Shown here piece by piece: positions 9,320 through 51,669 of a stretch of 64,000 nucleotides of DNA. The stretch comes from a virus, in IMG/VR virus record IMGVR_UViG_3300045988_185035. One strand, 5' to 3'. The notes under the pieces were generated by a model. That model searched no databases and was not told where the DNA came from. It saw nothing but the letters and a program-made list of their open reading frames with translations. How positions within the stretch are numbered: position 1 is the first letter of the stretch; each line of letters opens with the position of its first letter. The position numbers were made by a program, and so were the translations under genes.

Positions 9320-9368
9320 TTTTCTTTCCCTCCTTCTCGCCGCGTGGAGGCTACCAGCGTAGGGATAT

Positions 9369-10681: not shown

Positions 10682-10715
10682 ATATATGGCCGATTTAACG
10701 TCGCGGCCGAGACGA

Positions 10716-19152: not shown

Positions 19153-20310
19153 TTACGGCTTGCAATACCCGCAAGGTGTATAGCCCTGCTCGATTAGGTC
19201 ATCGCGGGAACCTGTATAGTCTTTGCGGTTTGCATCGCTCATTTGAGCTACGGCGGAGCAGTCAGGCTTATGAAATTTCATAGAGTTTGTGTTCAGGACA
19301 TAGGTACTGACCGTCGTATTCTTTTGCTGTGACTCCTCGACCTCGACTGTATCGGTGGTAGTGCTTCCTGCCGCCTGGTGATATTCGCCATAGGTGAAAG
19401 AAACGTCTTTACCATCTGAGGTGCAGTAGATGTCTCCCATCTCGTCAGTTCTGAAAACCTCAATGTCTTTGCTCTGGAGCTTTGCCAAAGTGATGTCGTG
19501 TGGATGACCATAGCTGTTGTCCTTGCCACAGGAAATAACAGCATAGGCTGGATTCACTGTGTCGAGGAACGCTTCGGATGTGGAGGTTCGAGAACCATGA
19601 TGCCCTACCTTCAGAACAGTAGATTGGATGTCTTGTCCAGACTGTAGGATAACATCTTCGGCAGGCTCTTCTGCATCACCCGTAAACAAGAATGAGGTTT
19701 CTCCATATACGATGCGTAGGACAATGGAGGTATTGTTGGTATCATCCGGCACTGAGTTCACGGCGATAACAGTCACTTCGGCATCGCCAAGGGAGAATGT
19801 ATCCCCTACCGACGGAATCGTAAGGCCGTTGCCTCTTTCTTCCGCTCGCTGCTTGAAGTTCCGAAAAGCTTTACTGTCGTACTCTGTGACAGGGCAATAC
19901 GTGACATCAGCCGTCACGGCTTCGAATGCACCGGAAAGACCTCCGATATGGTCTTCATGGGCGTGCGTGCCAACAACATAATCCAGATGTCCGTCTGTCT
20001 CACGTTCCAGAACAGAATATACGAGGTCAGAATCATCAACATTGCCACCGTCAATGAGCATCGAATGCCCATCACAGGTAACAAGAGCAGAGTCCGCCTG
20101 CCCCACATCAATGAAGTGGATAGTAAAGCTGCCGTCTTCCGTTACGCCAGCCGTCTGCTCGCTGTCAGAGACAGGACTTTCTGAGACGACCCCGGATACA
20201 GGAAGACTACCCGAATCAATCGGGGTCTGACCGCAGCCTGCGAAGCTGAGGGTGAAGAGTGCCGCAATCGCTGCCGCTGCTCTCCGCAAGAATGTGTTTT
20301 TGCTTTGCAT
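19153..20310 (-). CDS. MBL-fold metallo-hydrolase lipoprotein (ComEC/Rec2-type beta-lactamase domain) with C-terminal Ada-like Cys-rich zinc-binding motif
   Basis: Lipobox LSFAGC; THAHEDHIGG and later HHGSR motifs; C-terminal KFHKPDC...GYTPCGYCKP. Confidence 0.75.
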   Translation of the reverse strand: MQSKNTFLRRAAAAIAALFTLSFAGCGQTPIDSGSLPVSGVVSESPVSDSEQTAGVTEDGSFTIHFIDVGQADSALVTCDGHSMLIDGGNVDDSDLVYSVLERETDGHLDYVVGTHAHEDHIGGLSGAFEAVTADVTYCPVTEYDSKAFRNFKQRAEERGNGLTIPSVGDTFSLGDAEVTVIAVNSVPDDTNNTSIVLRIVYGETSFLFTGDAEEPAEDVILQSGQDIQSTVLKVGHHGSRTSTSEAFLDTVNPAYAVISCGKDNSYGHPHDITLAKLQSKDIEVFRTDEMGDIYCTSDGKDVSFTYGEYHQAAGSTTTDTVEVEESQQKNTTVSTYVLNTNSMKFHKPDCSAVAQMSDANRKDYTGSRDDLIEQGYTPCGYCKP

Positions 20311-20708: not shown

Positions 20709-21482
20709 CTAAGCAGACAGCGTGGCTCTGACGACATAGCGTTGGTTTGTGGTTTGGTAGTATCCGAACGGATAGCAGGTATACATCACGAGCCGGTCGG
20801 TGGTGTCCGAAAGGTCCACAAGAATGGTTCCATCATCGGCCACCACAGTGCTTGCATCTTCCGTTACGGTTCCGGGCCTAGCGGAATCTATCGTATATAC
20901 GTATTGTCCGTAGTCTGTAGTGACCACAAATTCGTCTCCAATACTCACGTATTGAAGCAAAGCCAAAGTGCTGTCGTTATGAGAGCAAAGAAGATGGCAA
21001 CCACCGTACCCGACCTGATAGGAGCCTGTGTACTGATATACACCGCTGCGGCTGTCGAGGAGAGCTTGGTCATCGCCCCAGATAAGGGAAGCGTTGATAC
21101 CTACGCTGCTGCATGAGACTGTCCCGTAGGAAGCGCCATACGTGGCAGGCACCACATCACCCCATACGCTGGTCGTGAGTGGAACCGAAGTATCTGTAGG
21201 GACCGGTGTTGGTGCTTCTGTCGGTTCAGGCGTCTGTGTAGGAGTAGGCTCTGGTGCAGCTGTTGGTTTCGACAAAGGAGCATGAGGTGTGGGTTCCGGG
21301 ATGCTGTCGGTGCTTAGATAAATCGCATCATTCGCTGTCTCAGCCGTTGCCGCTGATTCCGTTGTGCTGGCAAAAGAGTCTGGTGGTACTGATACGGGAG
21401 TAGATGCACTACTCGCGCAAGCTGTGGCAAAGGTCAGTACGCCTACTGCCACAGCAGTTATCACTGCTTTTGTCCGTCTCAT
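20709..21482 (-). CDS. lipoprotein with Ser/Thr/Pro-rich linker and a C-terminal sortase-like transpeptidase domain
   Basis: Lipobox FATAC; C-terminal CHLLCSHND ... LVMYTCYP ... RYVVRA resembles the sortase His / TLxTC / Arg arrangement; low-confidence fold assignment. Confidence 0.5.
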   Translation of the reverse strand: MRRTKAVITAVAVGVLTFATACASSASTPVSVPPDSFASTTESAATAETANDAIYLSTDSIPEPTPHAPLSKPTAAPEPTPTQTPEPTEAPTPVPTDTSVPLTTSVWGDVVPATYGASYGTVSCSSVGINASLIWGDDQALLDSRSGVYQYTGSYQVGYGGCHLLCSHNDSTLALLQYVSIGDEFVVTTDYGQYVYTIDSARPGTVTEDASTVVADDGTILVDLSDTTDRLVMYTCYPFGYYQTTNQRYVVRATLSA

Positions 21483-23278: not shown

Positions 23279-23785
23279 TTAGATGACGGGCTTTTCCGCA
23301 GAATACTGCCGATTGACCAGTTCCTGTGTACTCATGGCGCAGAACCCTGCATCAGCGGCCGCGTCAACCGCCTTGAAGTAGTCATCCACAAAGAGAATTT
23401 GGGAAGACTCCAAGCCATAGACTTTAGCAAACATCTGCATAACGGTCACTTTGCGTTCCGGGCTGGATGTGCCCAGCATGTCATGGAACTGACCCGGAAA
23501 GTGCATCTCAAGCCACTGCTTTTTGAACGGCAGCGTGATGCTGTCCTGCACAAAAGAGATGCAGTATTTCGGAATGTCGGGGCAGCTCTCAAGGAAGTGC
23601 TGGATGAGGTCATTTGGCTCACCGATTTCATCAAAGATTCGGTAGCCGTCCTTCGTTTCTTTTTCCCGGCGCAGGAGCCGTTCTCTATGTGCTTCGCCCG
23701 TAGAGTCGAGACGCTGTTCCCGATAGTGGATAAGCAGAGTATCATCAAAATCGAAGAACATCATCTTGATTTTTGAAAGGTTCAT
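23279..23785 (-). CDS. HAD-superfamily hydrolase (phosphatase-like)
   Basis: Motif I FFDFDDTLL (DxDxT) and a later FVDD motif. Confidence 0.7.
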   Translation of the reverse strand: MNLSKIKMMFFDFDDTLLIHYREQRLDSTGEAHRERLLRREKETKDGYRIFDEIGEPNDLIQHFLESCPDIPKYCISFVQDSITLPFKKQWLEMHFPGQFHDMLGTSSPERKVTVMQMFAKVYGLESSQILFVDDYFKAVDAAADAGFCAMSTQELVNRQYSAEKPVI

Positions 23786-28218: not shown

Positions 28219-29226
28219 TTACATAATTCGATGCAGATAGGATTTGTTGATTTCTACGAGCAACTCCTCGATTTTCGCAAAATCGGGTTTTGCCGGGAGT
28301 TCCGTTTTCTTCACGTCACGCTGGAATTTCGTTTCGAGCTGGTCCACAAACTCGAAGAATTCGGGTGCATACGACCCATCCTCACGCATATACTTGCCGT
28401 TGCGGATAGCCAGCAGTTCTTCGTGCTCCTTGTCCCGGCTGGTGATGATGCGTCCTTGCTCCAGAATGTCAAATGCTGTGTAATACAGTCTCACAAGGTG
28501 CATGGCGTGCTTATTGATATGGGCAGCATCCTTTTGCGCTTTCGGATGCTGCGGCTGTTCATACTGGTCGATAGTCGTTGTCAGACCTCGAAGCAGGGAC
28601 TTGAGAGAGTTGACAGGATAGTTACTCAGATTTCCAGAAATCAAGAGAGGATGTTTGCCTTCAGAATCGACATCTTCACTGATGCTGATTTCAAAGACAT
28701 CATCTTTACCCTGACCTGCAATCAGTCGTTCGAGGCTTCTCTTTTCAAACTTGTTTTTGAGTGGCTCAGGAGAAGCGCCGTTCCGCAGTAGCCCCATCTG
28801 CAAGCGTCTGAGCTGGTCGTTCGCAAAGCCACCATAGCTGTATGCAATGCGCCGGGTCAGGAAAAGTTCCTTGTTATCCAGCAGCATCTGTCCTTCTGGA
28901 GTCATGTTCACATACAGCTTCGGGTCGTTGCCAAGAAGCTCAATGACATTAGGGTTACATTGGACAAGCAGGTTGACAAATTTATTGATGGCGTAGATGA
29001 CGGTATCCGTCTGATTATTGATGACTTGCTCGAAGCGATTAAACCCCAAGATTTCAGGCGAACCAGCCGCACCACGGATGTCAACATCTGAACCCTCAAC
29101 ATTCGTACCATAGGCGTGGCTGCCGCCGATAGTCAAAAACAGGATGTTATCTCCCAGATGCTTGTTGGTGCGTAAAAAATCATATTCTTCACGCTGGAGA
29201 ATCGCTTTCAATTCTGCGTTTGTCAT
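28219..29226 (-). CDS. Pol-beta superfamily nucleotidyltransferase (335 aa)
   Basis: LTIGGSHAYGTNVEGSDVDIRG is the GS...DxD nucleotidyltransferase motif. Confidence 0.65.
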   Translation of the reverse strand: MTNAELKAILQREEYDFLRTNKHLGDNILFLTIGGSHAYGTNVEGSDVDIRGAAGSPEILGFNRFEQVINNQTDTVIYAINKFVNLLVQCNPNVIELLGNDPKLYVNMTPEGQMLLDNKELFLTRRIAYSYGGFANDQLRRLQMGLLRNGASPEPLKNKFEKRSLERLIAGQGKDDVFEISISEDVDSEGKHPLLISGNLSNYPVNSLKSLLRGLTTTIDQYEQPQHPKAQKDAAHINKHAMHLVRLYYTAFDILEQGRIITSRDKEHEELLAIRNGKYMREDGSYAPEFFEFVDQLETKFQRDVKKTELPAKPDFAKIEELLVEINKSYLHRIM

Positions 29227-29246
29227 GTTACCACTTCCTTACTATT

Positions 29247-29666
29247 TCACGTCATTGCAATACATTTCTTTTCAACCCGGACCCACTTCTCCGTACCCCT
29301 GTCATACTCCAGCACGTCTTTGGCAACCACTGTGCTTCCCTCGATATATTCCAGAATTTGCCGCACACGCATGGGACGTTTCGCATCCTGTGCTATCCGT
29401 AGCGCTGCATCTCTGTACTCAACTGTGTATGCAGGCTCGTAGGTTACATACGGGCAGCCATCGGGTTGTGTCTGACGACTCAGCTCAAAGCGCGACCGGA
29501 CGTAGCCGTTGTGCAGGGCATTACGGATGGCGCAAGCACTTTTTCTTTCGCCACTCTGTTCAAAGGTTTGTGCAATTTCCTCCACACACCGACAAAAATG
29601 CGTGGCATCTTGGCTGTGTTTTGCGAAAATCAGTTTTCGAATCAGCAGTGCTTCATCTTGACTCAC
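29247..29666 (-). CDS. hypothetical protein (139 aa)
   Basis: Six-frame ORF. Confidence 0.5.
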   Translation of the reverse strand: MSQDEALLIRKLIFAKHSQDATHFCRCVEEIAQTFEQSGERKSACAIRNALHNGYVRSRFELSRQTQPDGCPYVTYEPAYTVEYRDAALRIAQDAKRPMRVRQILEYIEGSTVVAKDVLEYDRGTEKWVRVEKKCIAMT

Positions 29667-29678
29667 GGCTCTCTCCTT

Positions 29679-30014
29679 TCACTTCTTCGTCGAGACCAAG
29701 AAGACTCTTTTGGAGAAAGTTCCCTTCTCTGCTGCCTTCTGGCTTCTGACCTGTTCCACTTCCCTCTTAGAGACAGCGCAAGTCTTGCCCATAGCGTACA
29801 GAACCTCCATGACGTCTGATATTTCCTCTGCACAGTCCAGAACGCTCCGTTGCTTGGCGGTGTAGGCTTCCAGCAGTTCGGCAACCTCTTCTTTCAGTTT
29901 CTCAGCCAGAGCATCTTCGTACTCCTTATCAGACAGCTTACGGGTCACGCAGGTTTCTCCGTTTTTCTCAATAATAGCCGGGATATTATCCCGAACCAGC
30001 TTTTGAAACATCAT
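29679..30014 (-). CDS. MazG-like nucleoside triphosphate pyrophosphohydrolase
   Basis: KLVRDNIPAIIEKNGET ... EEVAELLEA ... EEISDVMEVLYA (MazG/PRA-PH-like); GGAGGAAAG-N-ATG internal start. Confidence 0.7.
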   Translation of the reverse strand: MMFQKLVRDNIPAIIEKNGETCVTRKLSDKEYEDALAEKLKEEVAELLEAYTAKQRSVLDCAEEISDVMEVLYAMGKTCAVSKREVEQVRSQKAAEKGTFSKRVFLVSTKK

Positions 30015-30018
30015 AGTT

Positions 30019-30441
30019 TTATCTTTCCTCCAGTTTACAGCGCCGCAGCGGTATGCGCAGCTCACGACAGGTGTATGCGGTTTCTCGTTCATCTTCGGCT
30101 CCTTCAAAGACTACACAGCCTTTCTGCTGCTGTTTGGAAAGGTATGTAGGTAAATCATCGTTTGTGACAGATACAAATAGGTATCCACGCTCACTGGCGT
30201 ACATCGCAGCCAAGGCCGCAATCTTCTGCCCTGATTCTGCTACAATGACAACCTTATCTCGCTTTGCCAGCATCTTGTCGAGATACTCAGCTACCTGTTT
30301 GCGGTGCTTCCCCATCGCTTGCTGCGTGGCAGTAACACCACAAAAGAACCAATCCTTTTCGCAGATTCTGGCATCGCATTCCTTGCACTGAAGGTAAACC
30401 ACATTGCCGTTTATGTATGGACAGTAAATGCTCATTCGCAA
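30019..30441 (-). CDS. hypothetical protein with N-terminal Cys4 zinc-finger and Rossmann-like segment
   Basis: CPYINGNVVYLQCKECDARICEKDWFFC; VVIVAESGQKIAALAAMYASERG. Confidence 0.45.
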   Translation of the reverse strand: MRMSIYCPYINGNVVYLQCKECDARICEKDWFFCGVTATQQAMGKHRKQVAEYLDKMLAKRDKVVIVAESGQKIAALAAMYASERGYLFVSVTNDDLPTYLSKQQQKGCVVFEGAEDERETAYTCRELRIPLRRCKLEER

Positions 30442-30660
30442 TTACACCTTTTTGAAATATTTCTCAACGTATTCATCCGGCAGCTCCATGCGCATCTTAT
30501 CCGGTCCTGTGAATTCCTTGAAGCTATATTGCCCACCGCACCAGAACAGATGCCAGATAGTCCCGCGTTTGACGCGGTACGGCTTCTTTTTGCCATCAGG
30601 CCCGTCATACCATAGTGTCAGCGGCTTGACGCATTTGTAATTTGTGTTATACATATCGCT
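30442..30660 (-). CDS. small hypothetical protein (about 72 aa)
   Basis: AAGGAGCGAT-ATG internal start; the longer ORF is Arg-rich and overlaps its neighbour. Confidence 0.4.
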   Translation of the reverse strand, partial: SDMYNTNYKCVKPLTLWYDGPDGKKKPYRVKRGTIWHLFWCGGQYSFKEFTGPDKMRMELPDEYVEKYFKKV

Positions 30661-30703
30661 CCTTGTTTTTGTTGGTGGATTCTCCAACCCGTATTTATTT
30701 GTC

Positions 30704-31183
30704 TTATCTCTTATTCGGCGACAAAACCCAAATCTCCACATTAGCGTTCCACGCCTCAGCAGCTTCGGCAATGAGAGAAAAGACAGTGTCCCAATCACCG
30801 CCCGCCAGGCCGCAGCCGATGCTGCTCGGAATACGGATAGTTGCTTCCGGGGCAATTTTCGAACAATCTCGCATAAACGTAAACAATGCCGTTGCAAAGG
30901 CAGCATAGTTCGTCTGACGTTCACCAAGTCCATAGTTATTTTGCCCAAACAGGTTCACGACATGAATGTTCGGCTCAACCCGGACTTTCTGGTAACTGCC
31001 AAGGAACTCCTTCCATGCCGGAATTTCCATATATTGCTGGTACACAACGGGCCACTTACGGCGAATTTTGAGAGCAAGCCCCGCGCCCATCACGCCTCGA
31101 CAATTCACCTGTTGACAGATGTAGACATCCTTGTTAGTGGGAAGATTCGTCAGGATGTCGCCGGAGATAATCTTGATGCTCAT
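30704..31183 (-). CDS. macro domain protein (ADP-ribose binding/hydrolase)
   Basis: IKIISGDIL...DVYICQQVNCRGVMGAGLALKI ... GCGLAGGDW matches the MacroD-like ADP-ribose-binding loops. Confidence 0.8.
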   Translation of the reverse strand: MSIKIISGDILTNLPTNKDVYICQQVNCRGVMGAGLALKIRRKWPVVYQQYMEIPAWKEFLGSYQKVRVEPNIHVVNLFGQNNYGLGERQTNYAAFATALFTFMRDCSKIAPEATIRIPSSIGCGLAGGDWDTVFSLIAEAAEAWNANVEIWVLSPNKR

Positions 31184-31187
31184 GTCC

Positions 31188-31787
31188 TCACTCCTTTATG
31201 ACGGTATAGTTGCCCGTGGCAAAGCCCAGCAGCTTGTTGTAAAGTTCCGCAGCAATTTCAATGAATGTCTCGCTGCAAGGGCTTATCCTGTGCAGAAAAC
31301 GCTTGTCTTGCTGCATCATAGATGCCATATTGAAGGCAATGGCAAGAACCTTTTTCTGCATGCGGCCGAAAGTCACGCCTCTCATTTCCACACTGTCAGG
31401 CGTTGCTGCCCACACGGATGCCTGTACTGTAATGGCCCACAGGTCCGCATCCCAGAAGCGAGCGTTTTCGTTGCCCATCAAGGGCCGCATAATGCGCCAG
31501 GCGTTCTCGTAGCTCTTGCCTTCGACATTTTCAATGGCAGGCCCGAAGAAGCCGTCCGTTTTGTTGCTGAGTTCAATGAGACGCTCAGCCATCTTGGTGG
31601 CAGCGTAGGCCAGAGACTTGGCATCGGTGTCGTTCATTTCGATAGTCAGCTCTTCCCCATCGGGCTTGATGTACTTATACTTGTTCTCACCGATGGCTGC
31701 ACTCTCCCACAGGATGCGGGGCAGTTCCTTCAGCATGGTCTTGCTTGCACCAGCCTTTGCTTTATCAATGTAACTGCTGTTTGCCAT
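31188..31787 (-). CDS. hypothetical protein, paralog of 38391-39053
   Basis: AKSLAYAATKMAERLIELSNKTDGF aligns with AKHLAESSVLLAERLMVLYNMTAGF. Confidence 0.6.
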   Translation of the reverse strand: MANSSYIDKAKAGASKTMLKELPRILWESAAIGENKYKYIKPDGEELTIEMNDTDAKSLAYAATKMAERLIELSNKTDGFFGPAIENVEGKSYENAWRIMRPLMGNENARFWDADLWAITVQASVWAATPDSVEMRGVTFGRMQKKVLAIAFNMASMMQQDKRFLHRISPCSETFIEIAAELYNKLLGFATGNYTVIKE

Positions 31788-31825
31788 GTTGTGTTCCTTT
31801 CAGTTCAAATGATAGATGCCTTAAC

Positions 31826-32251
31826 TCAATTCAGTTTGTTTCCCGGATAGAGTGCATAATCATTGCGGGATGTATGCTCCTCGCTATGTATCAGCATCAC
31901 GTTCGCCATGCTGGTGTAGTAGTCTTTGTCTCCGCTCATAGTGTCTTCGACCTCGAACTTGATGTTCAGACCGCCATCAACAATCTCGTACTTTACGAGT
32001 TTGGCTATGACCCACTGGTTATTATGTCGGTAGTAGATGTGGTCATAGTCAGGCTCTGCTGTCTCTGCTGTGCCGGGTTCGGCCGTCTCGCTCGTAGCAA
32101 ACAGCTGCGACGGAATGTCTTTCAGCTCTTCCAGCGTCTGGTCTGCCACTTCACCGCATCCCTCGAAGGCTACCGCAACGACCAGAATCACGCACACAAC
32201 CAATACTTTCTTTGCAAATCGCATAATCTGTTTCAAATGAATCACCACCAT
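31826..32251 (-). CDS. small lipoprotein
   Basis: Signal peptide plus lipobox AFEGC. Confidence 0.5.
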   Translation of the reverse strand: MVVIHLKQIMRFAKKVLVVCVILVVAVAFEGCGEVADQTLEELKDIPSQLFATSETAEPGTAETAEPDYDHIYYRHNNQWVIAKLVKYEIVDGGLNIKFEVEDTMSGDKDYYTSMANVMLIHSEEHTSRNDYALYPGNKLN

Positions 32252-32552
32252 TATTGTAGGTGCAATGTGCTTTTTTGCTTTCTCTATCTATAATTTTACC
32301 TGTAAAAACAGCAAAATACAACGATAGTAGCTTGTTTTTAATCTTCTGTACACATTTTGAAAGAGTGTCTTTGCCATCGAATAGAAAAGAAAAAGCCCGC
32401 CTGTTAGCAGCAGGCAGGCCGTTCTCGCAGTGAGCGTTTTAGGTCCGCTCAAGACCCTATTCGTCTCTACCGAAGCAACGCTGTCAACGCTGTTCAGTAT
32501 CTATTAGTATATGGTGGTCGCATATCGTGTCAACTGGATATCGCGGCAATGC

Positions 32553-32596
32553 AACAGAAAAAGGAGCCTCGCCCGTTTTTGCAGGTAAGACTCCTC
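32553..32596 (-). terminator. rho-independent terminator
   Basis: Hairpin GGAGCCTCGCCCG...CGGGCGAGGCTCC followed by TTTTT on the minus strand. Confidence 0.55.
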
Positions 32597-32607
32597 GTTC
32601 GTTTGGC

Positions 32608-32934
32608 TTAGCCTTCGATATCGAAAGTGTAGCCCTTCACGGTCATAGTGACCAGGCCGCCACGAGACTGACACTTTACGCCGTCCAGGCTGACATCGAG
32701 AGTCAGGCTGGAATCTTCGTTGTCCAGCCAGCTGGGCCGCATGTAGGCAGCGAGGTCGTGCAGCGCACCGATGACGTAAGCAACCAGGTCCTCATCATCC
32801 AGAGTCTGAGCAATCACATCGTTTTCCTTGTCGGCGGGAAAGCCGATGGAAGCGGTGATGCTGTCAAGGGTGTTGTCGTCCTTGGAGCGGAAAGCGGTGG
32901 CGCTGAACTCAATCAGGTTGGGGTTGATGTTCAT
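32608..32934 (-). CDS. hypothetical protein, tandem paralog A (108 aa)
   Basis: AAGGAGAATACCACT-ATG; shares ATAFR..DDN.L.S..ASI..P.......I..TLDDE.L....ALH/YNL......P.WLD.ED.SLTLD....G..AQSRGGLV with 33120-33440. Confidence 0.6.
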   Translation of the reverse strand: MNINPNLIEFSATAFRSKDDNTLDSITASIGFPADKENDVIAQTLDDEDLVAYVIGALHDLAAYMRPSWLDNEDSSLTLDVSLDGVKCQSRGGLVTMTVKGYTFDIEG

Positions 32935-33065
32935 AGTGGTATTCTCCTTTATATTTGTTATTAGTTCCCTGTGGTACTTATTATTGTATGCGACTCGCAT
33001 AAGGCGTCAACCGTCGCGCCTACGGCTTTTGCAGCTATGCTCTCTTATCCGTTTAGCAGCTACGC

Positions 33066-33106
33066 AACAAAAAAGGAGCCTCACCCGCTGCTGCAGGCAA
33101 GGCTCT
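33066..33106 (-). terminator. rho-independent terminator
   Basis: GGAGCCTCACCCGCTGCTGCAGGCAAGGCTC hairpin with a T-tract on the minus strand. Confidence 0.5.
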
Positions 33107-33119
33107 GAATTGTCTCAGC

Positions 33120-33440
33120 TTAATCTTCGAGGTTGAAGGTGAAGCCGTTTCCTTTCATAGCAACGAGACCGCCGCGTGACTGAGCCTCGCTGCCGTCGAT
33201 GAAAATATCCAGCGTCAGGCTGGTATCCTCGCCGTCCAGCCAGTTGGGGCGCAGGTCGCTGACAAGGTTGTACAGTGCTGCAACAGCATGAACAATAAGC
33301 TTCTCATCGTCCAGCGTGTTCCCAATCACTTCGTCGTCGTTCTCCACGGGTACGCTGATGGAAGCCGAGAGACTTTCGAGGTTGTTGTCGTCATCGTTGC
33401 GGAATGCGGTAGCTTCGAATTTCAGAGTGCAAGTGTTCAT
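33120..33440 (-). CDS. hypothetical protein, tandem paralog B (106 aa)
   Basis: AAAGGAGAACACCAAT-ATG; paralog of 32608-32934. Confidence 0.6.
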   Translation of the reverse strand: MNTCTLKFEATAFRNDDDNNLESLSASISVPVENDDEVIGNTLDDEKLIVHAVAALYNLVSDLRPNWLDGEDTSLTLDIFIDGSEAQSRGGLVAMKGNGFTFNLED

Positions 33441-33635
33441 ATTGGTGTTCTCCTTTGTGTGTTATTGAGATTCTTCTTGCACCTTTAATTGTACGCAAAT
33501 CGCACGATACAGCAATATAAAATTCCTTTAATAGAATCCGAAATATTTGAATTCAATTCGTGATTTCTTTGATTTTGTGATTTTCGCACGCGTAGGTGCC
33601 AAAAAGTTTATGTATAGCCTGGTTTATACTGACCT

Positions 33636-34532
33636 TTATGAATTTTGTTCATACACATTTATCAGCACTTGCTTGTTGGATGCAATAAGTGTCACCTTTT
33701 CACTGTAATTGATGCCTGGCGTCAAGAACATCCTTTTATTAAGAATTTCAGTGGTATATGTATAATCAAAGAGTCGATTTGTCAAATCTGCATTTTTATT
33801 TGAAGTGAAAATGACGCCTATATGCGTAGCCAGTGGAACCCAAATCTCTAAATTTTCGTTTTTGGACCGGAAACAAGCTACCGGAAAATTTGAAGTGATG
33901 AAGACTTTGCTTGTATAGCAAAAACGAAATTTAAAATTGCTTAATATGTTGCTAAAGTTTTCGGCTTGAAATCCCTCAAGTTTCCTTAATTCGTCCGTTG
34001 GTACGATTGTTCGATTTAGTGCTTGCTTTAGAAATGCGTTCATCATCAGACCCCACTCGTCTTTACCGAGAACAGGACCCTTCAGATTGTTAAACATGCG
34101 CTCATAGGTTGTTTTGTTCCTAAAATAAAGTTGAGCAATAAATTGAAACAGTATGCTCTTTTCTTCTTTATTTAGAATTAGGACTGTATTAAAATTTTCA
34201 TGGTGGCTTGCTATTTCTATAATTTTGTCAATCAATTTCTTTTGCTGAGATTCAAATTTTGAAAAGAGGTGCTCTTTCTCATTATGTAGAATATATTGGC
34301 CGCCATATTGGCTTTCATACAAATTATTAGCAGAGCACAAACTTGAGACTCCATTTTCTTTCGGGCGAGGGTTGATTCCTGTAGCCTCAAGAGAATAAAC
34401 CACGCCGGGTTTCCCCGGAATTGAAAAATAAGACAAGTAAAATTGTGGGACATAGTGTTCATTGACCGTTGCATTTTGCACATTTGATGACATCGTTATT
34501 GCTCCTTTCATAAAAAGAAAAAAGCCTCCCAC
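33636..34532 (-). CDS. DUF4238-like protein (HxVPxxYL motif)
   Basis: N-terminal NEHYVPQFYLSYF motif characteristic of DUF4238; lies in an AT-rich segment. Confidence 0.55.
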   Translation of the reverse strand: MGGFFLFMKGAITMSSNVQNATVNEHYVPQFYLSYFSIPGKPGVVYSLEATGINPRPKENGVSSLCSANNLYESQYGGQYILHNEKEHLFSKFESQQKKLIDKIIEIASHHENFNTVLILNKEEKSILFQFIAQLYFRNKTTYERMFNNLKGPVLGKDEWGLMMNAFLKQALNRTIVPTDELRKLEGFQAENFSNILSNFKFRFCYTSKVFITSNFPVACFRSKNENLEIWVPLATHIGVIFTSNKNADLTNRLFDYTYTTEILNKRMFLTPGINYSEKVTLIASNKQVLINVYEQNS

Positions 34533-34632
34533 CGTAGTCAGTGTGATACTGATTACGATAGGAGGCTGTGAACCTGTTGTGATGATTGTATTATAGCACG
34601 AATTGAGAATTGCGCAAGACTATATAAGGCGC

Positions 34633-35250
34633 TTATTTGGGTGTTATTGTTAACGGTGTCCCAATTTTGACAGCTAAGAACCAGTGACCACTCCTACATT
34701 CTACCTTATGATATATTACCCGCGCCTTGTTCGTTTTGTCTAATGCTATTTTTTCTCCTGTTAGAAGCTCTATACTATTATTTTCATAATCAACAATTCC
34801 AAGCAGAATTTGCTTTGTCTCACTTGGCGCGATAAATTCGATTGTAACAAATTTCTGTTCGTTGACAACAATTTCTATGTCAGTTGCAACATCATTTCCT
34901 TTGTTATATATATCAAGTTTGATTGCAAATTTTTGGGCGTGGTCGAGCAGCGCTTCTTCAAAGTCATTGGCGTTCATTCTCGCGATTACATTTGCACTTT
35001 TGCTTGCTTGTAAACAATATTGCTTTTCTTCTATATCAGCTGTTTTTTGTGTGAGGATTATAATGCTGACTAAATTAAGCGTTTCAACGACGCTTGCTAT
35101 AATTTCCCACGCATCATTGATTTTCAGACAATACAGAGCTACCCTGACTATTAGTATAATGATTGCGGAAATGCTCCAAACGTAAACAGGCTTTACTTTT
35201 CTTTTGAAGTGCTTATCATTTGATTCCATAGCATTTAATATTGTTTTCAA
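34633..35250 (-). CDS. membrane protein (two N-terminal TM helices plus soluble domain)
   Basis: Hydrophobic segments VYVWSISAIIILIVRVALY and IIASVVETLNLVSIIILT; AT-rich. Confidence 0.5.
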   Translation of the reverse strand: MKTILNAMESNDKHFKRKVKPVYVWSISAIIILIVRVALYCLKINDAWEIIASVVETLNLVSIIILTQKTADIEEKQYCLQASKSANVIARMNANDFEEALLDHAQKFAIKLDIYNKGNDVATDIEIVVNEQKFVTIEFIAPSETKQILLGIVDYENNSIELLTGEKIALDKTNKARVIYHKVECRSGHWFLAVKIGTPLTITPK

Positions 35251-36649
35251 TCTCTTCCCCTAACTCCCTATTTGTCTCCGCATCCCCCACCATATCTCTC
35301 AGCAATACAAACATAGCTCTCAACACAATGCCAGAGCCATGATAACGCCCAACGCGCTGGTACTTTTCAGAGTCGCAACAGTCATGCAGTATCGTTGCTT
35401 GCCCGAACGCGACAGCCGCATTAAGTGCCATCGCAATGGGCGTTCCAATGGCAAACTCGCCATCTGAAACCAATGCGAGCTTTGCAAGCCAGATATAGGA
35501 GCGGTAAACATAGAGTATCTCTTCCAGCAACATGCCGCTCCAATCGGAACCTGTGTCGTTCCCTTGGATGGTGACAATTACCTTCTTGAAGCCATCTTTC
35601 GCCTGCTTATACTTCCTATCGGCCGCATCCAGGCAAGCCATTTGGAACATTGCCTTGTAAGAGGAATCATCCAGTTGCAGAGCTTTCTGGAAGCATTGCA
35701 ATGCTCTCTCTCCGTCTGCATACATTTGTTTTTCGGACAGGCCGTATTGAAGGAATATCTCGGCCGTAAAAGGCATTGTCTCTTTGGAGGCGTGCTCTAT
35801 GGCATCACGCAGGTATGGTCTTGCATCAAGAGCAAATTGCGGCTGTCCTTCGCACAGTGCTGCTGCAAGGCGGTACATGGGCACGAAGCCGGGGGCTACG
35901 CGGTAGATTTTGTTCAGCTCCGAGAGCAGCTTCTCTACCGGTTCAAGAATCGAAAGCAGCCTTATTGTCAACGAGGTGTAAGTCTCCAACGCGGCTGTAA
36001 GCTCTCTTAGATGTCTCTGTGCGTTCACATAAGCGTACACGGAATAGATGCTCTGTGGCCCTACTCGACTTTGCTTTTCCAGCCCAATGAAGGAATCTGC
36101 CATCTCGTTAAGGAAGCTGTCTTCCGGCAACTTGTAATCACTCTTTAGGCTGAGAGCCTTTAGTTCGCTCATTTTCAGAACCTGAAACGTTCTCTTGATT
36201 TGCAAGTGCGCGAACATGTCAAATTGCCAGAAGGTCTCATTGATGTGCTGTAGACTCGCTACTGCCATCGCATCTCCTCGCCAAACGTGACGGATGATGT
36301 CATTAAGTGCTTCCTTCTCAAACTGCATCACAGAGGAACGGCTCTGTATAGCATCAGCACCATTGATAATTAGTTTCTGTTCCTTGATGCTGAAAGCGCA
36401 CCACAATTCATTCTCAGCCAGCTCTGCATCACCGGGATAGCGGTCAGTGAGAAACAGATACGCTGTCTGTTTATTTTCAGGATGCGCCAATATCTTATGT
36501 TGCTTTGACATGTCTTCGGCCGACATCCTGGTTGTTCTGACCAGGCAGCCAACGAAGGAAAAGAATGTTCTCAAGACTTCTTTTTCTGCTCCGGCTTGCG
36601 GTTCGTAGCAAATTTTGATAGCCATAATTGGCTTGATTGCATTGCTCAT
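35216..36649 (-). CDS. large hypothetical protein with TPR-like helical repeats (477 aa)
   Basis: Six-frame ORF; helical repeats (ALQCFQKALQLDDSSYKAMFQMA); overlaps the previous gene by 35 nt. Confidence 0.55.
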   Translation of the reverse strand: MSNAIKPIMAIKICYEPQAGAEKEVLRTFFSFVGCLVRTTRMSAEDMSKQHKILAHPENKQTAYLFLTDRYPGDAELAENELWCAFSIKEQKLIINGADAIQSRSSVMQFEKEALNDIIRHVWRGDAMAVASLQHINETFWQFDMFAHLQIKRTFQVLKMSELKALSLKSDYKLPEDSFLNEMADSFIGLEKQSRVGPQSIYSVYAYVNAQRHLRELTAALETYTSLTIRLLSILEPVEKLLSELNKIYRVAPGFVPMYRLAAALCEGQPQFALDARPYLRDAIEHASKETMPFTAEIFLQYGLSEKQMYADGERALQCFQKALQLDDSSYKAMFQMACLDAADRKYKQAKDGFKKVIVTIQGNDTGSDWSGMLLEEILYVYRSYIWLAKLALVSDGEFAIGTPIAMALNAAVAFGQATILHDCCDSEKYQRVGRYHGSGIVLRAMFVLLRDMVGDAETNRELGEEIENNIKCYGIK

Positions 36650-36667
36650 GATTGCTTTTTATAACAA

Positions 36668-36710
36668 GAAACGCACGCGTGCGTTCAAAATCACATGCGT
36701 GCGTTTTAAG
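36668..36710. promoter_or_regulatory. perfect 16-bp palindrome AACGCACGCGTGCGTT plus half-site repeat (ACATGCGTGCGTTTT)
   Basis: Intergenic between 36712-37329 and the start of 35216-36649; candidate operator or bidirectional terminator. Confidence 0.45.
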
Positions 36711-36711
36711 A

Positions 36712-37329
36712 TTATTTCGTTTCTTTCTTCGGATAGACACCGCTCGTTGTAGCCGTAAACAGCTTTTGGAAGATTGCTACAGCTACCAAGCAGAACCTCT
36801 CTGTTTTTGTTCTTCCTTCTACTTGCAGGCAGCCGCTTTCCTGAATTTGAAGCAGCGCCTTATAGATGGCTCCATAGATGGTCTTTCGGAGGTCTGCATC
36901 TTCTTTGAGTACAGCCACGATGTCTTTCGATGCCCAGGTGCAAACGCACATGAGTTCTGAAAATTTTTCGTCTTCTCCTTCAAAGGCCAGCTTCCCGCCG
37001 GGTGCGAAAGCTGCAAGTGCCAGTTTGTAAAGGTCCACGTCATCTTTCGGCGTTTTGAGTTTGTCAGACTCTTTTGTGGCATCCCATACTTTAAGGATGC
37101 CGTCAGCATATTTTGCCGACATGAAAGCAAGTCTGGTTCGCGTAAAATCGTTTGCCTTTACACGCTGCTCAGTTTCGGGATTGTAACAGGTCGTACTATC
37201 TACAATGTACTGCTGCTTCATCGTCGTCTCGATAGCTCGAACTGCAGGCATCAGACTTTTTGTATAGCTTTCAAGGGCTTGAAAGCCTTTATCCCCTTCG
37301 CTATTGCGATTCTTGTAATTGCACTTCAT
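36712..37329 (-). CDS. hypothetical protein (205 aa)
   Basis: Six-frame ORF. Confidence 0.55.
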   Translation of the reverse strand: MKCNYKNRNSEGDKGFQALESYTKSLMPAVRAIETTMKQQYIVDSTTCYNPETEQRVKANDFTRTRLAFMSAKYADGILKVWDATKESDKLKTPKDDVDLYKLALAAFAPGGKLAFEGEDEKFSELMCVCTWASKDIVAVLKEDADLRKTIYGAIYKALLQIQESGCLQVEGRTKTERFCLVAVAIFQKLFTATTSGVYPKKETK

Positions 37330-37340
37330 AGATGCCTCCG

Positions 37341-37952
37341 TTACGCAATAGAATTAACCATATCCAACTCCATACAGAAAACCACGAAGGCCAGGTTGGT
37401 GATTTTATCGGCATCCGTATCGAGATGCCCGACAAGTTCCTTGACCGCACCGCCGTCCTTGAGGCTCTTGGCCGCCTGGTAGATGAGCATGTAGGTGTTG
37501 ACGTAGATAGCCTGCTGTTTCACGCGGTCCTTGGTAATGTGCTCCGGCATGCAATCCTCGGACAGCGACTTAATGAGCGGATACCAGCAGGAAAGGTACA
37601 AAGCACCTCCCTCATCGTTCATCGCCTGCTGAATCTTGACCTGATACTTCGGGTAATTGCCATTCACGACCTCAATGAACTCGGTATCTTTGAACTCATC
37701 GCGGTGGCAGTGAAGCCACAGGATAGCGTTGGCAAGGTCCATGCAGATGAGCGCCAGCTTTTCGGCTTTGGCATCATCCAGTTTGACGGTATCGAAGCTG
37801 TCAGCATCGATGTCATACTGCTTGTAAATGTTCACCAGCTTGTAGCTATTCTCCCCTGCGCGTACCTTTGCCTTGATGAAGTCGGTAAAGTCGTGCGCCA
37901 GGGCCTCGTAGGCTTTCTGCTGCTCTTCGGCAATCGTATTCTGTTCGCTCAT
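37341..37952 (-). CDS. hypothetical protein, paralog of 39180-39791
   Basis: AAGGAGAACTCAAC-ATG; shares YKLVNIY, LKDGGAVKELV and DADKITNLAF with the paralog. Confidence 0.6.
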   Translation of the reverse strand: MSEQNTIAEEQQKAYEALAHDFTDFIKAKVRAGENSYKLVNIYKQYDIDADSFDTVKLDDAKAEKLALICMDLANAILWLHCHRDEFKDTEFIEVVNGNYPKYQVKIQQAMNDEGGALYLSCWYPLIKSLSEDCMPEHITKDRVKQQAIYVNTYMLIYQAAKSLKDGGAVKELVGHLDTDADKITNLAFVVFCMELDMVNSIA

Positions 37953-37966
37953 GTTGAGTTCTCCTT

Positions 37967-38410
37967 TTATCTTAATTTGGTCCTGATTTCTTCGAGCATC
38001 ATGCCCAGTTTGTTCTGACCGTGAACGCCCTTGCATCTGGGACACTGGCAATCCCCCCAATAGTTATCGTGCCAGCCGGTCGTGTCTTCGATAATGTGCC
38101 GGTCGCCTGTAGCGAGCAGTCGCTGTTTGAACTCTTCGTTCTGGTTGAACTTGGCATACAGCACCCGGCGCATCGCCTCGTCTCGAACTTCGTCCCAATC
38201 TGGAGGAAGTTGGACCCGGCGGCCGAGTCGCTTAGCCTCGTTCGGCATGAGACAGGCAAACTGGCGTCTCTCCTCCGGCGGGACCTTCTGGGCTTGGAAT
38301 GCTGCTTCCGCGTTGAGGTAGTAGATTCCATCCAGCACAAAGGAGCAAGGATAATAATTGCTCAGAAACCCGTAGGTCGGGTCGTCTTTCTTAAACCGCA
38401 GCAGATTCAA
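37967..38410 (-). CDS. NADAR-domain protein (YbiA-like; ADP-ribose/N-glycoside hydrolase family)
   Basis: LSNYYPCSFVLDGIYYLNAEAAFQAQK...AKRLGR...KFNQNEEFKQRLLATGDRHIIE...DNYWGDC matches the NADAR/YbiA signature; likely TTG start after GGAGG. Confidence 0.8.
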   Translation of the reverse strand: MNLLRFKKDDPTYGFLSNYYPCSFVLDGIYYLNAEAAFQAQKVPPEERRQFACLMPNEAKRLGRRVQLPPDWDEVRDEAMRRVLYAKFNQNEEFKQRLLATGDRHIIEDTTGWHDNYWGDCQCPRCKGVHGQNKLGMMLEEIRTKLR

Positions 38411-39053
38411 TGTGCATTCCCTCCATAACCCCGGCGGGCGTATTTTTGAGAACCTTGTAGCGCATCGTCGTAGCACCAAGCAGACCGTTGAAGACGGTCA
38501 CGGCGGTATGCACGAACAGAGGGTTCTGCAAGGTCATCTTGCCGTTTGTATCCCACTGGCCTTTGAGTTCAGCGGCCGCATCGTACACAACCATCATCAT
38601 GGCTTCATACATGTCGGACATCAGCTGTCGGTCGTACTTCTTCAAAGCATAGTAGCTTGGCAGGTTGTAAACGCGGCCGAGGAGCGGCTCGTCATACAAG
38701 GGCGAACCTTTCGCAACCATCGTATTGTAGACTTTGGGCCAGGCAGCTTCTTTCGGCTTGCCGGTGGTTGCCTGCATCTCGATGTTCTTGAAACCAGCCG
38801 TCATGTTGTACAGCACCATGAGCCGCTCGGCAAGCAAGACAGAAGATTCAGCCAGGTGCTTTGCTTCCTCATTGGTCATCGCAACCTGCATGGCCGTGCT
38901 GTCCGAGTCGTTGCCATAATAGAAATACTGCTTGCGCCCGGCGGCAGATTTCTGTACGAGCTTCTTTGCCAGCTGGCTCTCGATGTAATTGTAGATGTCG
39001 TTCTCCAACTCGCAGGTGATGCGCGTTGCGGTATAATGGATATTTTTGTTCAT
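38391..39053 (-). CDS. hypothetical protein, paralog of 31188-31787
   Basis: Six-frame ORF; preceded by the promoter motif and a leader hairpin. Confidence 0.6.
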   Translation of the reverse strand: MNKNIHYTATRITCELENDIYNYIESQLAKKLVQKSAAGRKQYFYYGNDSDSTAMQVAMTNEEAKHLAESSVLLAERLMVLYNMTAGFKNIEMQATTGKPKEAAWPKVYNTMVAKGSPLYDEPLLGRVYNLPSYYALKKYDRQLMSDMYEAMMMVVYDAAAELKGQWDTNGKMTLQNPLFVHTAVTVFNGLLGATTMRYKVLKNTPAGVMEGMHIESAAV

Positions 39054-39179: not shown

Positions 39180-39791
39180 TCACGGATTCATCTCGTATGC
39201 AATCAGCGCGTCATTGAAATACTTGAAAGCCAAGTTGCCGATTTTATCGGCGTCCTTCGGCAGCTTGTCCACCATGCGCTTAATAGAGCCGCCCGTCTTG
39301 AGAGACTTCATTGCAAGGTGAACATTCCAGTACATGTTGGTATACACCAACTGCCACTTCTTCTTATCGCCGACATAAGCATCCGGCATACAGTCTTCTG
39401 CCACAAGGCGGATAAGCATATCCCACGCATCCAGATAGAGCGGGCTTGTATTGTCGTTCAGCTTATGGATGATTTGCTTCAGATAGGAAGTGTAGTCTTC
39501 CCCGCTGATGTCAACGAGCCCGATGTCTGCGAACTTGTCGCGGAAGTAGTACAGCCAAAGTGTTGCTTTTGCAAGGTCGCAGCTGGCCGCAGCAAGCAGC
39601 TGAGCCTTTTCGTCCGGCAAAGTCACAATCTTGGCATCAGGGTCATCCAAGCCCTTCTCACCATAGAGATTGACCAGCTTGTACTGGTCTTTGCCGACTC
39701 TATCCTCTCTGCGGATAAACTCTTTGAAGTCTTCCACGAAGGCAATGTATGCCTGGACCTGTGGGTCGTTTTTCGGGTTGAACTCACTCAT
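39180..39791 (-). CDS. hypothetical protein, paralog of 37341-37952
   Basis: Six-frame ORF; paralog motifs as listed for 37341-37952. Confidence 0.6.
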   Translation of the reverse strand: MSEFNPKNDPQVQAYIAFVEDFKEFIRREDRVGKDQYKLVNLYGEKGLDDPDAKIVTLPDEKAQLLAAASCDLAKATLWLYYFRDKFADIGLVDISGEDYTSYLKQIIHKLNDNTSPLYLDAWDMLIRLVAEDCMPDAYVGDKKKWQLVYTNMYWNVHLAMKSLKTGGSIKRMVDKLPKDADKIGNLAFKYFNDALIAYEMNP

Positions 39792-41952: not shown

Positions 41953-42624
41953 TCAATTCAGACCGTTTTCATCGTACTTGTTGCTCTTTCCAAGGTTACA
42001 GATGCTGCAAAGGGTCCGCAGGTTGGACGGCACAGTCTTTCCGCCTTTGGATACAGGTAAGATGTGGTCAACATGTAACGTGATGCCATCTTTCGGAGTG
42101 CGGCCGCAAAGCACACACTTAAAGCCATCGCGCTTCATAATGTCATATCGCAAGGACGGTGTCATGGCTTTCCGCTGGTATTCCTTGCTTTCCTTTTCTT
42201 TATCCTTCTGATAGGACTCGTTTATAAGAGTCTCAATCTCACTCGCGGTATAAACCTGGCTGTCCCCATAGTTTCGATGCCCCTGCGGTGAAGTATAGGT
42301 TTTGGCGCAGCGCAGGAGCAGTTCCGTTGTGGGAGTCGGACAGTTGCGTTCTTCTTTCTTGACTTCATCGCGTTCGAGTCTCGCATACATCTTTGAGCGC
42401 CATGTAGGCTCATAATCTTCTGTCTCGTCGAAGTACGGAGGCAAATCATCAAAATCATGGAGGTATTGGTTCATCAAGTTGGCATTTTCTCTTGTGAGCT
42501 GCAACAGCGTTTCAAATTCTTCTCGTTCCTTACTGACTTGCATAAAGACGTTCTTCTCGAAGTTAAAATGGTCATATTTCGGCTTTGTATCAAGTTGCCA
42601 TCTGCGAGTTACCATCCGGAACAT
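41953..42624 (-). CDS. HNH endonuclease domain protein (3' portion of a frameshifted paralog of 41049-41939)
   Basis: IMKRDGFKCVLCGRTPKDGITLHVDHILPVSKGG...NLRTLCSICN HNH motif; the N-terminal TM plus YTFYDV segment lies in ORF 42590-42874 in another frame. Confidence 0.6.
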   Translation of the reverse strand: MFRMVTRRWQLDTKPKYDHFNFEKNVFMQVSKEREEFETLLQLTRENANLMNQYLHDFDDLPPYFDETEDYEPTWRSKMYARLERDEVKKEERNCPTPTTELLLRCAKTYTSPQGHRNYGDSQVYTASEIETLINESYQKDKEKESKEYQRKAMTPSLRYDIMKRDGFKCVLCGRTPKDGITLHVDHILPVSKGGKTVPSNLRTLCSICNLGKSNKYDENGLN

Positions 42625-51431: not shown

Positions 51432-51669
51432 ATACATACTCCTTTCGCTCATCACAACCAATGCCTGTCTTTTGTGCAGGCGCGAATACAAACAAAAAAG
51501 CTGCGGAAGCAAAAGCAACCACAGCCTTTTATATGAACCACCGGCCCAGGAAAAAGCCGATGGGGTGAATACAAGCGGAAAGCAAACATGTCAAAGTGAG
51601 AGGAAACCACGTCGTACACACCGGCAGGAAGAGGTTAAGACCCGCCGGAACCCAATTCCGCTTGTACAA

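Follow-up and report, generated by a model that had tools for sequence, protein, structure and literature searches.

Introduction

Why should a large mobile element carry genes for two unrelated hydrolases, a macrodomain protein and a NADAR protein, within a stretch of about 10 kb? The question is raised by positions 28,219 to 38,410 of a 64,000-nucleotide piece of DNA (the window, as we call the whole stretch analysed), which is catalogued as viral in IMG/VR (record IMGVR_UViG_3300045988_185035), has a GC content of ~0.48 and keeps nearly all of its genes on the minus strand. An initial annotation, made from the letters and their open reading frames (ORFs), had drawn five genes of this stretch (for a Pol-beta nucleotidyltransferase, MazG, a Zn-finger/Rossmann protein, a macro domain protein and a NADAR/YbiA-domain protein) into one cluster of enzymes processing ADP-ribose (ADPr) and nucleotide signals, and had suggested that macro and NADAR, together in one phage, are a dual counter to DNA ADP-ribosylating toxins. 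All the ORFs it named lie on the minus strand where it had placed them, and the dual counter stands in so far as both hydrolases keep their essential residues and conserved positions among relatives; it is not new, however, because T4 AdfN and AdfM already do so, and the element at hand is most probably not a phage. We see an even chance that the flagged stretch is a conflict-cargo region of a mobile element whose macro and NADAR proteins erase DarT-type marks.

A macrodomain protein with a Gln-type site

The macro domain at 30704..31183 (minus strand, 159 aa) is borne out by matches to solved structures, PADLOC and PHROG rather than by the Pfam Macro model. Its nearest solved relatives are SCO6735 of S. 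coelicolor (5e3b, E-value 8.6e-14) and BT1257 (2fg1, 1e-10), then the DarG macrodomains (5m31/5m3i, 1e-5) and TARG1 (0.007); it also matches phrog_335 (1e-35) and the PADLOC model for DarG (9e-14), the latter at model positions 2-147 of 329 only, and a C-terminal DarT-binding domain is absent from the 159-aa protein.

SCO6735 takes ADPr off thymidine in DNA and can rescue cells from DarT; its mutants N27S, Q85A and G128E are inactive, its G126/G128 loop is essential and its Gln85 stands where DarG and TARG1 have the catalytic Lys (PMC9411070). In an alignment of the window protein with 35 homologues, reaching down to 35% identity, N27, Q81 and the loop G123-C-G-L-A-G-G129 are invariant or at least 90% conserved, with Gln81 at the position of the catalytic Lys80 of DarG; where SCO6735 has H24 the window protein has Gln, while the family consensus in the same alignment is His. 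T4 Tk.4 aligns with the window protein over its full length at 24% identity (E-value 3e-10) and has the essential residues in common with it. The protein clearly falls into the ALC1/TARG1-like class, as a Gln-type member in the manner of SCO6735 and T4 Tk.4 (AdfM), and we predict it to be a thymidine-ADPr DNA glycohydrolase.

A YbiA-type NADAR protein

The NADAR domain that had been read at 37967..38410 (minus strand, 147 aa) is confirmed by PF08719 (3e-28; 99.6 bits over a cut-off of 35.1), by the structures of YbiA (2b3w, 2e-16) and of PnNADAR from Phytophthora (8bau, 9.5e-13) and by the PADLOC model PDC-M42C (1e-14). Its E35 and K42, in the motif NAEAAFQAQK, align with E36 and K43 of T4 AdfN, the residues that were mutated in this factor countering DarTG1 (PMC11825919); both are invariant in comparison with T4 gp30.3 and with the NADAR of a distant relative (L085, see below), and they also align with YbiA and PnNADAR. 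Catalytic residues had been proposed as a check on the dual counter, and on alignment the essential residues of the macro protein and the Glu/Lys pair of the NADAR protein are both intact.

NADAR subfamilies are told apart by a residue in the last strand, which is Glu in YbiA, Asp in DarG1/BC4488 and His in gp30.3 (PMC11125620). The window protein has Glu (IIEDT, compared with LVEHT in YbiA and LKHS in T4 gp30.3), and the Pfam model Phage_30_3 (PF08010) stays below threshold with 31.2 bits against a cut-off of 36 (2e-7). On this criterion it is of the YbiA type, and neither of the gp30.3/AdfN type (His) nor of the DarG1 type (Asp). All NADAR subtypes tested, YbiA included, hydrolyse guanine-ADPr DNA in vitro (PMC11125620), and the window protein is predicted to be a guanine-ADPr glycohydrolase acting on DNA or RNA.

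Both hydrolases appear to be orphans that have no detectable ADP-ribosyltransferase (ART) as partner: among the neighbours scanned there was no Pfam match to ART or DarT (DUF4433), the PADLOC DarT models having been run on some of them only.

A conjugation module beside the window

The placing of both hydrolases in one phage was not supported, with genes for a type IV secretion system (T4SS) on the same contig and virion genes not found. Directly past the right edge of the window, on the strand of the window genes and on the same contig (IMG/VR UViG_3300045988_183062; L098 1-12709 and L190 3376-11476 in our numbering of sequences), there is a type IV coupling protein (T4SS-DNA_transf, 3.8e-49, and TraG-D_C, 6e-32, in Pfam), a VirB4-type ATPase (Pfam P-loop_TraG, 2e-19), an M23 wall hydrolase (Pfam Peptidase_M23), a VirB6-like protein of 1,717 aa with a polytopic N-terminus, as read by eye, and a long Ser/Thr/Ala/Pro-rich tail, a VirB2-like protein of 129 aa with two transmembrane segments, again judged by eye, and a RecD2-like helicase found by PDB search. 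By these assignments the right-flank genes are a complete Gram-positive-type conjugation module.

Families of capsid, portal, terminase or tail proteins are missing from the ~85 window ORFs, and a PHROG scan of the 10 kb past the left window edge found no phage structural genes. On the right flank (30 kb) Pfam matches of the main ORFs in L098 74-12709 were to conjugation and M23 families and otherwise weak, and L190 1-10100, which was read by eye and with one PDB search, showed no virion gene. Megablast of the 26-40 kb part against phages and plasmids returned no match, and MT835476.1 was rejected as a related reference phage on the grounds of a single 167-aa match and no tRNAs. More than 80 relatives stand in the viral catalogue (IMG/VR) on contigs of 25-390 kb. 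The closest relative binned into a genome is a human-gut Clostridiales metagenome-assembled genome; the element itself may exceed 180 kb, of which ~100 kb were examined.

Since a T4SS is present and virion genes are not visible, misclassification as viral is likely, and we consider the element very probably to be a conjugative megaplasmid or an integrative and conjugative element. Several observations weigh against this identity. No relaxase or origin of transfer (oriT) was recognised in the ~100 kb examined, only the RecD2-like helicase. The 22 tRNA genes found by ARAGORN, which form an array of several clusters (976-11372, minus strand), are unusual on a conjugative element, and besides a Mor-like activator the window has several genes for HNH proteins and many others of the kind that large phages typically carry. 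Homologues of the macro protein occur in 810 of 50,697 phage records and in 31 of 72,556 plasmid records, and those of the NADAR protein in 635 and 61 of the same records. Because of the tRNA array and these phage-biased counts, and because relatives have contigs of up to 390 kb and the examined part is incomplete, the element may alternatively be a phage or a hybrid. In practical terms, a family of elements such as this, of 100-390 kb and with 22 tRNAs and many phage-like accessory genes, can be listed as viral despite a T4SS and no visible virion genes.

As for cargo, the window holds a sortase (20709-21482), a flotillin/SPFH protein (49740-51518) and a Y-family (UmuC-like) polymerase (55509-56819), which, together with the putative lipoprotein p141 described below, are of a style commoner for conjugative elements than for phages. 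ORFs within 839-3352 that overlap tRNAs are spurious.

Two transcription units and a hypervariable island

For comparison we used 81 viral-catalogue loci and others from IMG/VR and public assemblies, all retrieved through the macro gene, and mapped the window proteins onto them; the co-occurrence counts given here and below are uncorrected for relatedness. The loci have in common a backbone that can be written as ...B2...A1-NADAR...C-p141-(A2)-macro-(ZnS-MazG-p139)-(RlaP)-helicase-nuclease...HAD-sortase-MBL, with brackets for genes that come and go. From NADAR through macro to the helicase it is kept in dozens of contigs at 50-60% identity, both hydrolase genes holding their positions.

Terminator and promoter scans, taken with gene spacing, divide the flagged stretch into two transcription units ~7 kb apart, of which one reads p141-A2-macro-p70-ZnS-MazG-p139-RlaP and ends at a strong terminator-like hairpin of 13 pairs and a T-run past RlaP (28014-27984, minus strand), while the other reads A1-NADAR-B2-X and starts after a terminator-like site at 39105-39083. 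RlaP, MazG and ZnS occur in 24, 44 and 37 of the 81 loci, in varying combinations, and seem from this distribution to be interchangeable accessories rather than fixed partners. The picture of one coordinated five-gene cluster is not upheld, as there are two units and RlaP, MazG and ZnS are gained and lost independently; because these three come and go in this way, the five genes do not form one pathway.

The macro gene itself lies at a sharp recombination boundary, because in the relative L004 its product is 66% identical to ours and the downstream neighbours are 93-99% identical, everything upstream of macro being replaced (30442-31183 in the window compared with L004 10001-10748). Two lineages of the viral catalogue that are distant and independent (L072; L085 and L087) also have macro and NADAR 3-9 kb apart. 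In the 171-kb contig L085 (9980-14929; likewise in L087) the genes run from macro through those for a JAB/RadC-like protein, a single-stranded DNA-binding protein and a Zn-ribbon protein to a NADAR of the YbiA type and then an RtcB-like ligase. Among the matches listed, the macro and the NADAR list each include 36 records from phages of Vibrio harveyi BAA-1116.

Between the two units lies a hypervariable island. Its strain-specific cargo (33636..36649, minus strand) comprises a DUF4238 protein (PF14022, 4e-25), a membrane protein of 205 aa and a protein of 477 aa whose TPR-like matches are weak, and has a GC content of 0.418 with a dip at 34-36 kb. In L001 and L002, which are contigs 91-96% identical to the window, the DUF4238 gene (33577-34508) is replaced by ~490 bp, and four further relatives carry homologues of it at different positions, so that this stretch looks like recently exchanged cargo. 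The island of L004-L008 has instead an EcoRI-type methylase, GmrSD with HNH, and GIY-YIG. In L187-L189 (contigs of 95-326 kb) a type I-C CRISPR-Cas system (Cas3, Cas5d, Csd1, Cas7) follows RlaP, ~3-4 kb past p139/RlaP.

Neighbours of the macro gene

The Pol-beta nucleotidyltransferase claimed at 28219..29226 (minus strand, 335 aa) is genuine and belongs to the RlaP family (PF10127, 9e-20, 71.8 bits over a cut-off of 23; phrog_388, 7e-48), with the nucleotidyltransferase (NTase) motif GGSHAYGT...SDVDIRG. This motif also aligns with T4 NrdC.11, which is 27% identical over the NTase domain (E-value 4e-8). RlaP extends damaged 3' ends of RNA by 1-2 nucleoside monophosphates, after which tRNAs can again be aminoacylated (PMC12776372), hence its listing among enzymes of ADPr and signal processing has to be given up in favour of RNA 3'-end repair. 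After the RlaP terminator a promoter-like site (27938-27911, minus strand) precedes the helicase gene.

The assignment of MazG at 29679..30014 (minus strand, 111 aa) is a marginal one: a MazG/HisE-like all-alpha NTP pyrophosphohydrolase is indicated just above the PRA-PH cut-off (PF01503, 23.6 bits against 21.3, E-value 7e-5), an acidic EExxE...EExxD pattern can be read by eye and the relative in L004 also has a weak PRA-PH match, but no PDB sequence match was obtained. For the Zn-finger/Rossmann protein, called ZnS here (30019..30441, minus strand), a zinc-ribbon-like N-terminus with four conserved Cys residues and a Rossmann-like domain of alternating alpha/beta elements can be recognised, but the structural model is of low confidence (pLDDT 60) and finds only generic folds, among which CARF-type sensor domains recur weakly. 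This gives a weak hint, from the model, that ZnS may be a CARF/SLOG-like sensor; an impression by eye that it might be SLOG/DUF2493 found no Pfam or PDB match and was dropped.

The remaining genes of this unit are less telling. p139 (29247..29666, minus strand) has no Pfam or PHROG match, is paralogous to the C-terminal region of the 12139-12750 product (28% identity, E-value 5e-7) and accompanies ZnS and MazG (44 of 81 loci). The small gene p70 (30442..30654, minus strand) is deduced from the C-terminal 70 codons of the ORF at 30442-30948, and its position matches called genes of 70-72 aa in L004 and L187-189. The first gene of the unit, p141 (31826..32251, minus strand), lies upstream of macro in 62 of the 81 loci and codes for a putative lipoprotein or membrane-anchored protein, with a hydrophobic N-terminus ending in AFEGC. 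It is preceded by a promoter-like site (32533-32506, minus strand; TTGACA-16-TATACT, 11/12 consensus) and, ~90 nt past this, by a terminator-like GC-rich hairpin of 10 bp (32420-32394, minus strand); the two may be a leader, an attenuator or a small RNA. Further upstream are two family-C paralogues of 130 and 106 aa (32608..33440, minus strand; 50% identity, E-value 2e-38), which occur in 60 of the 81 loci.

Families A and B

Unrelated as they are, the two hydrolase genes each have a family A gene directly in front. A1 (38391..39053, minus strand, 220 aa) overlaps the NADAR start with its stop by 20 nt, and A2 (31188..31787, minus strand, 199 aa) lies 4 bp upstream of macro. Adjacency of A1 and NADAR recurs in ~12 loci (L001, L002, L013, L018, L020, L022-L028) with A1 at 35-40% identity, and that of A2 and macro in ~38 loci with A proteins at 33-40% identity. 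Family B has B1 (39180..39791, minus strand, 203 aa) and, downstream of NADAR, B2 (37341-37952, minus strand, 203 aa; 42% identity to B1, E-value 8e-49), which is followed by X (36712-37329, minus strand, 205 aa), which may be a fifth member of the A/B kind, the comparison of X with B not being significant. The two families are distantly related (hhalign probability 81%), lineage-specific with 4-5 copies in 9 kb, and scarce: 1.84 billion proteins yielded 59 representative clusters. Both consist mainly of helices and lack structural relatives, and family A, being helical, does not have an ART fold.

Other genes of the window

Outside the flagged stretch, Pfam upholds the HD_4 phosphohydrolase at 6537-7271 (4e-7; phrog_990, 2e-50), which is embedded in the tRNA array, the YpsA/SLOG protein at 53845-54369 (3.5e-16) and the two metallophosphoesterases, one calcineurin-like (Metallophos) at 62958-63800 (2e-14) and one crossing the right window edge, the first three of these being on the minus strand. 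For the HAD phosphatase read at 23279-23785 (minus strand) there is the DxDxT-like motif FDFDDT but no match to a hidden Markov model.

An MBL-fold protein of 385 aa (19153-20310, minus strand) is found across the lineage at ~75% identity. Its PADLOC matches are confined to the MBL domains of LmuA, DRT and Avs1a, and an identity as Apyc1, for which one relative has a faint precomputed match, was rejected, our own Pfam scan showing none; it could be a cyclic-nucleotide phosphodiesterase. DUF2325-like domains occur in three element proteins (C-terminus of 60264-62738; L094 11199-11594; C-terminus of L190 982-2730), and window proteins of 824 and 569 aa have a C-terminal region in common (24% identity, E-value 8e-8).

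Discussion

What, then, might the two hydrolases do? Our favoured reading, to which we gave an even chance at the outset, sees a large mobile element of a human-gut Clostridiales host with the flagged stretch as its variable conflict cargo. The Gln-type macro protein would cut ADPr off thymidine in single-stranded DNA and the YbiA-type NADAR protein would cut it off guanine, both erasing marks that the host may set on the DNA of the element with toxins like DarT2 and DarT1 or with related ARTs, and removal of these marks would let its replication and establishment continue. RlaP, acting on damaged tRNA 3' ends, the MazG-like NTP pyrophosphatase and ZnS would be separate, exchangeable counter-measures or accessories. 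What the two proteins act on, their role against DarT and a link with single-stranded entry are our inferences. If the prediction holds, a counter-defence only lately established in phages, in which orphan hydrolases resembling antitoxins reverse the ADP-ribosylation of DNA by DarT, would be extended to a divergent Gln-type macro and a YbiA-type NADAR protein and to uncultured gut Bacillota elements.

There are several points that speak against erasure of DNA marks by the two enzymes and that we have to weigh. The homologues from which substrates are deduced are only 24-40% identical. The macro protein matches no Pfam family at E<=0.01, the Macro model (PF01661) staying below threshold, although ~30 homologues at ~40% identity to it do have precomputed PF01661. 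DNA-binding lysines of SCO6735 are missing, K34 being Ala34 here and the K89 region reading YGLGE. Without phage, expression of E. coli YbiA or T4 gp30.3 failed to rescue cells from DarT1, protection in cells by NADARs being specific (PMC11125620); because of this failure, activity in vitro is no guarantee of protection. Linkage is weak beyond the present lineage, only 2 of 80 bacterial loci having NADAR and a macro homologue 10 kb or less apart. In L085 the RtcB-like ligase gene overlaps the NADAR stop, which lends that locus an RNA-repair flavour, and in Vibrio phage Ceto the macro homologue gp176 (gp175-177, L009 19132-22146) lies between a ribose-phosphate pyrophosphokinase-like and a nicotinate-phosphoribosyltransferase-like gene. 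The flanking pair of gp175 and gp177 presumably resembles the NARP1 genes for NAD reconstitution, with the macrodomain inserted. We found no literature linking NARP1 with macrodomains, and no NADAR lies within the 40 kb of Ceto that were examined.

The latter two loci lead to other ways of seeing the pair. One is that macro unit and NADAR are concerned with RNA and protect the tRNAs of the element and host translation, RlaP rebuilding tRNA 3' ends, NADAR clearing guanine ADPr from RNA and macro clearing ADPR-1''-phosphate or phosphate-linked ADPr on RNA. The activity of RlaP on damaged RNA with recovery of aminoacylation (PMC12776372) fits here, as do the 22 tRNA genes, the tight co-directional string that joins RlaP and macro (~175 bp apart in one sub-lineage) and the ligase directly after NADAR in distant L085. 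NADARs are, moreover, the sole reversers of guanosine RNA ADP-ribosylation and macrodomains reverse the phosphate-end type (PMC11833690), and some phage Macro and NADAR proteins have been proposed to act in NAD-dependent RNA repair (PMC7824862). The ligase step, however, is wanting in our window: RtcB, Rnl2 and Rnl1-like ligases did not turn up in any of the frames of the 64 kb, and Tpt1/KptA and a 2H phosphoesterase were not found in Pfam and PHROG scans. (A PHROG match to the RNA ligase family phrog_8238, 8.9e-13, turned up among 60 window proteins scanned together and could not be assigned to one of them; its probable source is an HNH domain in the product of 41953-42624. Ten ligase candidates were negative, and a 288-aa KxDG protein had no PDB match.) RlaP is present in only 24 of the 81 macro-bearing loci, so the two are not obligate partners, and the closest characterised relatives of the macro protein (SCO6735, T4 AdfM, DarG) act on DNA. 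To our minds an RNA-centred role is unlikely.

Another scenario sees the pair cleaning up soluble metabolites or signals by hydrolysis of ADPR-1''-phosphate, O-acetyl-ADPR and cyclic or conjugated ADPR signals, with ZnS and YpsA as ligand sensors or sponges, in order to blunt Thoeris/TIR/SIR2 immunity or to feed NAD salvage. It draws on the annotation of phrog_335 as 'phosphatase', on the NAD-salvage-like flanks of the Ceto homologue, on the predicted breakdown of ADPr-derived signals by Macro, NADAR and SLOG domains of jumbo phages (PMC7824862) and on the YpsA/SLOG protein and the CARF-like hints for ZnS. Yet NAD-salvage genes (Adps/Namat, NampT/Nmnat) were not found in window scans, characterised ALC1/TARG1-like Gln-type macrodomains act on DNA- or protein-linked ADPr, the ZnS model is of low confidence and YpsA is 23 kb away, and we regard such a role as quite improbable.

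That the hydrolases serve self-directed regulation or addiction, as antidotes to an unrecognised ART of the element's own (A/B, p139 or X), seems very improbable, for while a family A gene abuts each of them in pairings that persist at 33-40% identity, the gene order is like darT-darG and YbiA-type NADARs do form toxin-antitoxin pairs with small ARTs (YarT; PMC11125620), family A has no Pfam matches and a helical fold, at least four A/B copies in 9 kb make adjacency partly a matter of chance, and the sub-lineage L005-L028 has macro without an upstream A gene.

Coming back to erasure of DarT-type marks, the conjugation module adds a twist to the topic. Conjugative DNA enters as single strands, and DarT acts on single-stranded DNA. 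One may envisage that a gut-Clostridiales conjugative plasmid has borrowed the orphan-antitoxin strategy of phages, with early hydrolases stripping the T-strand, DarTG as a barrier to conjugation and family A proteins as targeting subunits or DarT inhibitors, a scenario that we hold to be possible but doubtful; if true, these would be the first plasmid anti-DarT factors. We found no literature linking DarTG to conjugation. Whether DarTG restricts it, and whether plasmids respond with enzymes like DarG, are directly testable questions, because the T-strand is single-stranded and as such the substrate of DarT, and because hydrolases of this kind go unmentioned in the plasmid survey considered below.

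Comparison with known systems

SCO6735 (PDB 5E3B), the best solved-structure match of the macro protein, is like it in the Gln-type site, with equivalents of N27, Q85 and G126/G128, and in that neither is linked to a DarT gene. SCO6735 is chromosomal, however, and its K34 and K89 are not kept in the window protein, which has Ala and a shorter loop there. Closer in setting are T4 AdfM (Tk.4) and PhiKZ gp104, which are also stand-alone macrodomains of ~155 aa on mobile elements, without a DarT-binding domain or an adjacent toxin; a macrodomain anti-DarTG2 factor, AdfM, has been described from chimalliviruses (PMC13309987). With T4 Tk.4 the window protein has Asn27, Gln81 and the GxG...GxW loop in common, although at 24% identity its activity is predicted by homology, and both have Gln where PhiKZ AdfM and DarG2 have the catalytic Lys (K78/K80). 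Unlike the AdfM phages, the carrier of the window protein is a probable conjugative element.

The NADAR protein has its best PDB match in E. coli YbiA, with which it shares the bare fold without N-terminal extension and the same catalytic Glu. With T4 AdfN (gp30.3) it has in common that it is an orphan on a mobile element and keeps the catalytic Glu/Lys pair (E36/K43 as E35/K42), but the two are 27% identical and differ in the last strand, which has His in gp30.3 and Glu here. Phage NADARs countering DarTG1 were described in 2025 (AdfN; PMC11825919), and Johannesman et al. found a single phage NADAR to lie close to the YbiA group. Unlike the myxobacterial YarT-YbiA pair, the window NADAR has no YarT-like ART adjoining it, and it is borne by a mobile element in a hypervariable island rather than in a LexA-controlled operon.

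As to the combination, T4 carries AdfN and AdfM, which are needed against DarTG1 and DarTG2, respectively (bioRxiv 10.1101/2025.11.20.689424), and it also has an RlaP-like NTase, NrdC.11. The dual arrangement of macro and NADAR thus exists already in T4, and the enzymes here add a further member. More widely, Macro, NADAR, SLOG, RlaP, HD and calcineurin-like phosphoesterases were predicted in 2021 as a repertoire of jumbo phages against nucleotide and NAD+ systems (Iyer et al. 2021, PMC7824862), and the window has the same domain repertoire. With these systems and with plasmid leading-region islands it also shares genes on one strand, a UmuC-like polymerase nearby and variable cargo. The survey of leading-region islands, however, mentions no ADPr hydrolases, NADAR or DarT (Samuel et al. 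2024, PMC11541004), and the window, in contrast to these islands, has no located oriT or relaxase by which a leading region could be placed. In contrast to the jumbo-phage systems its repertoire adjoins a conjugation module, and it is this setting, with hydrolase genes beside a conjugation apparatus, that seems to us more interesting than the enzymes themselves.

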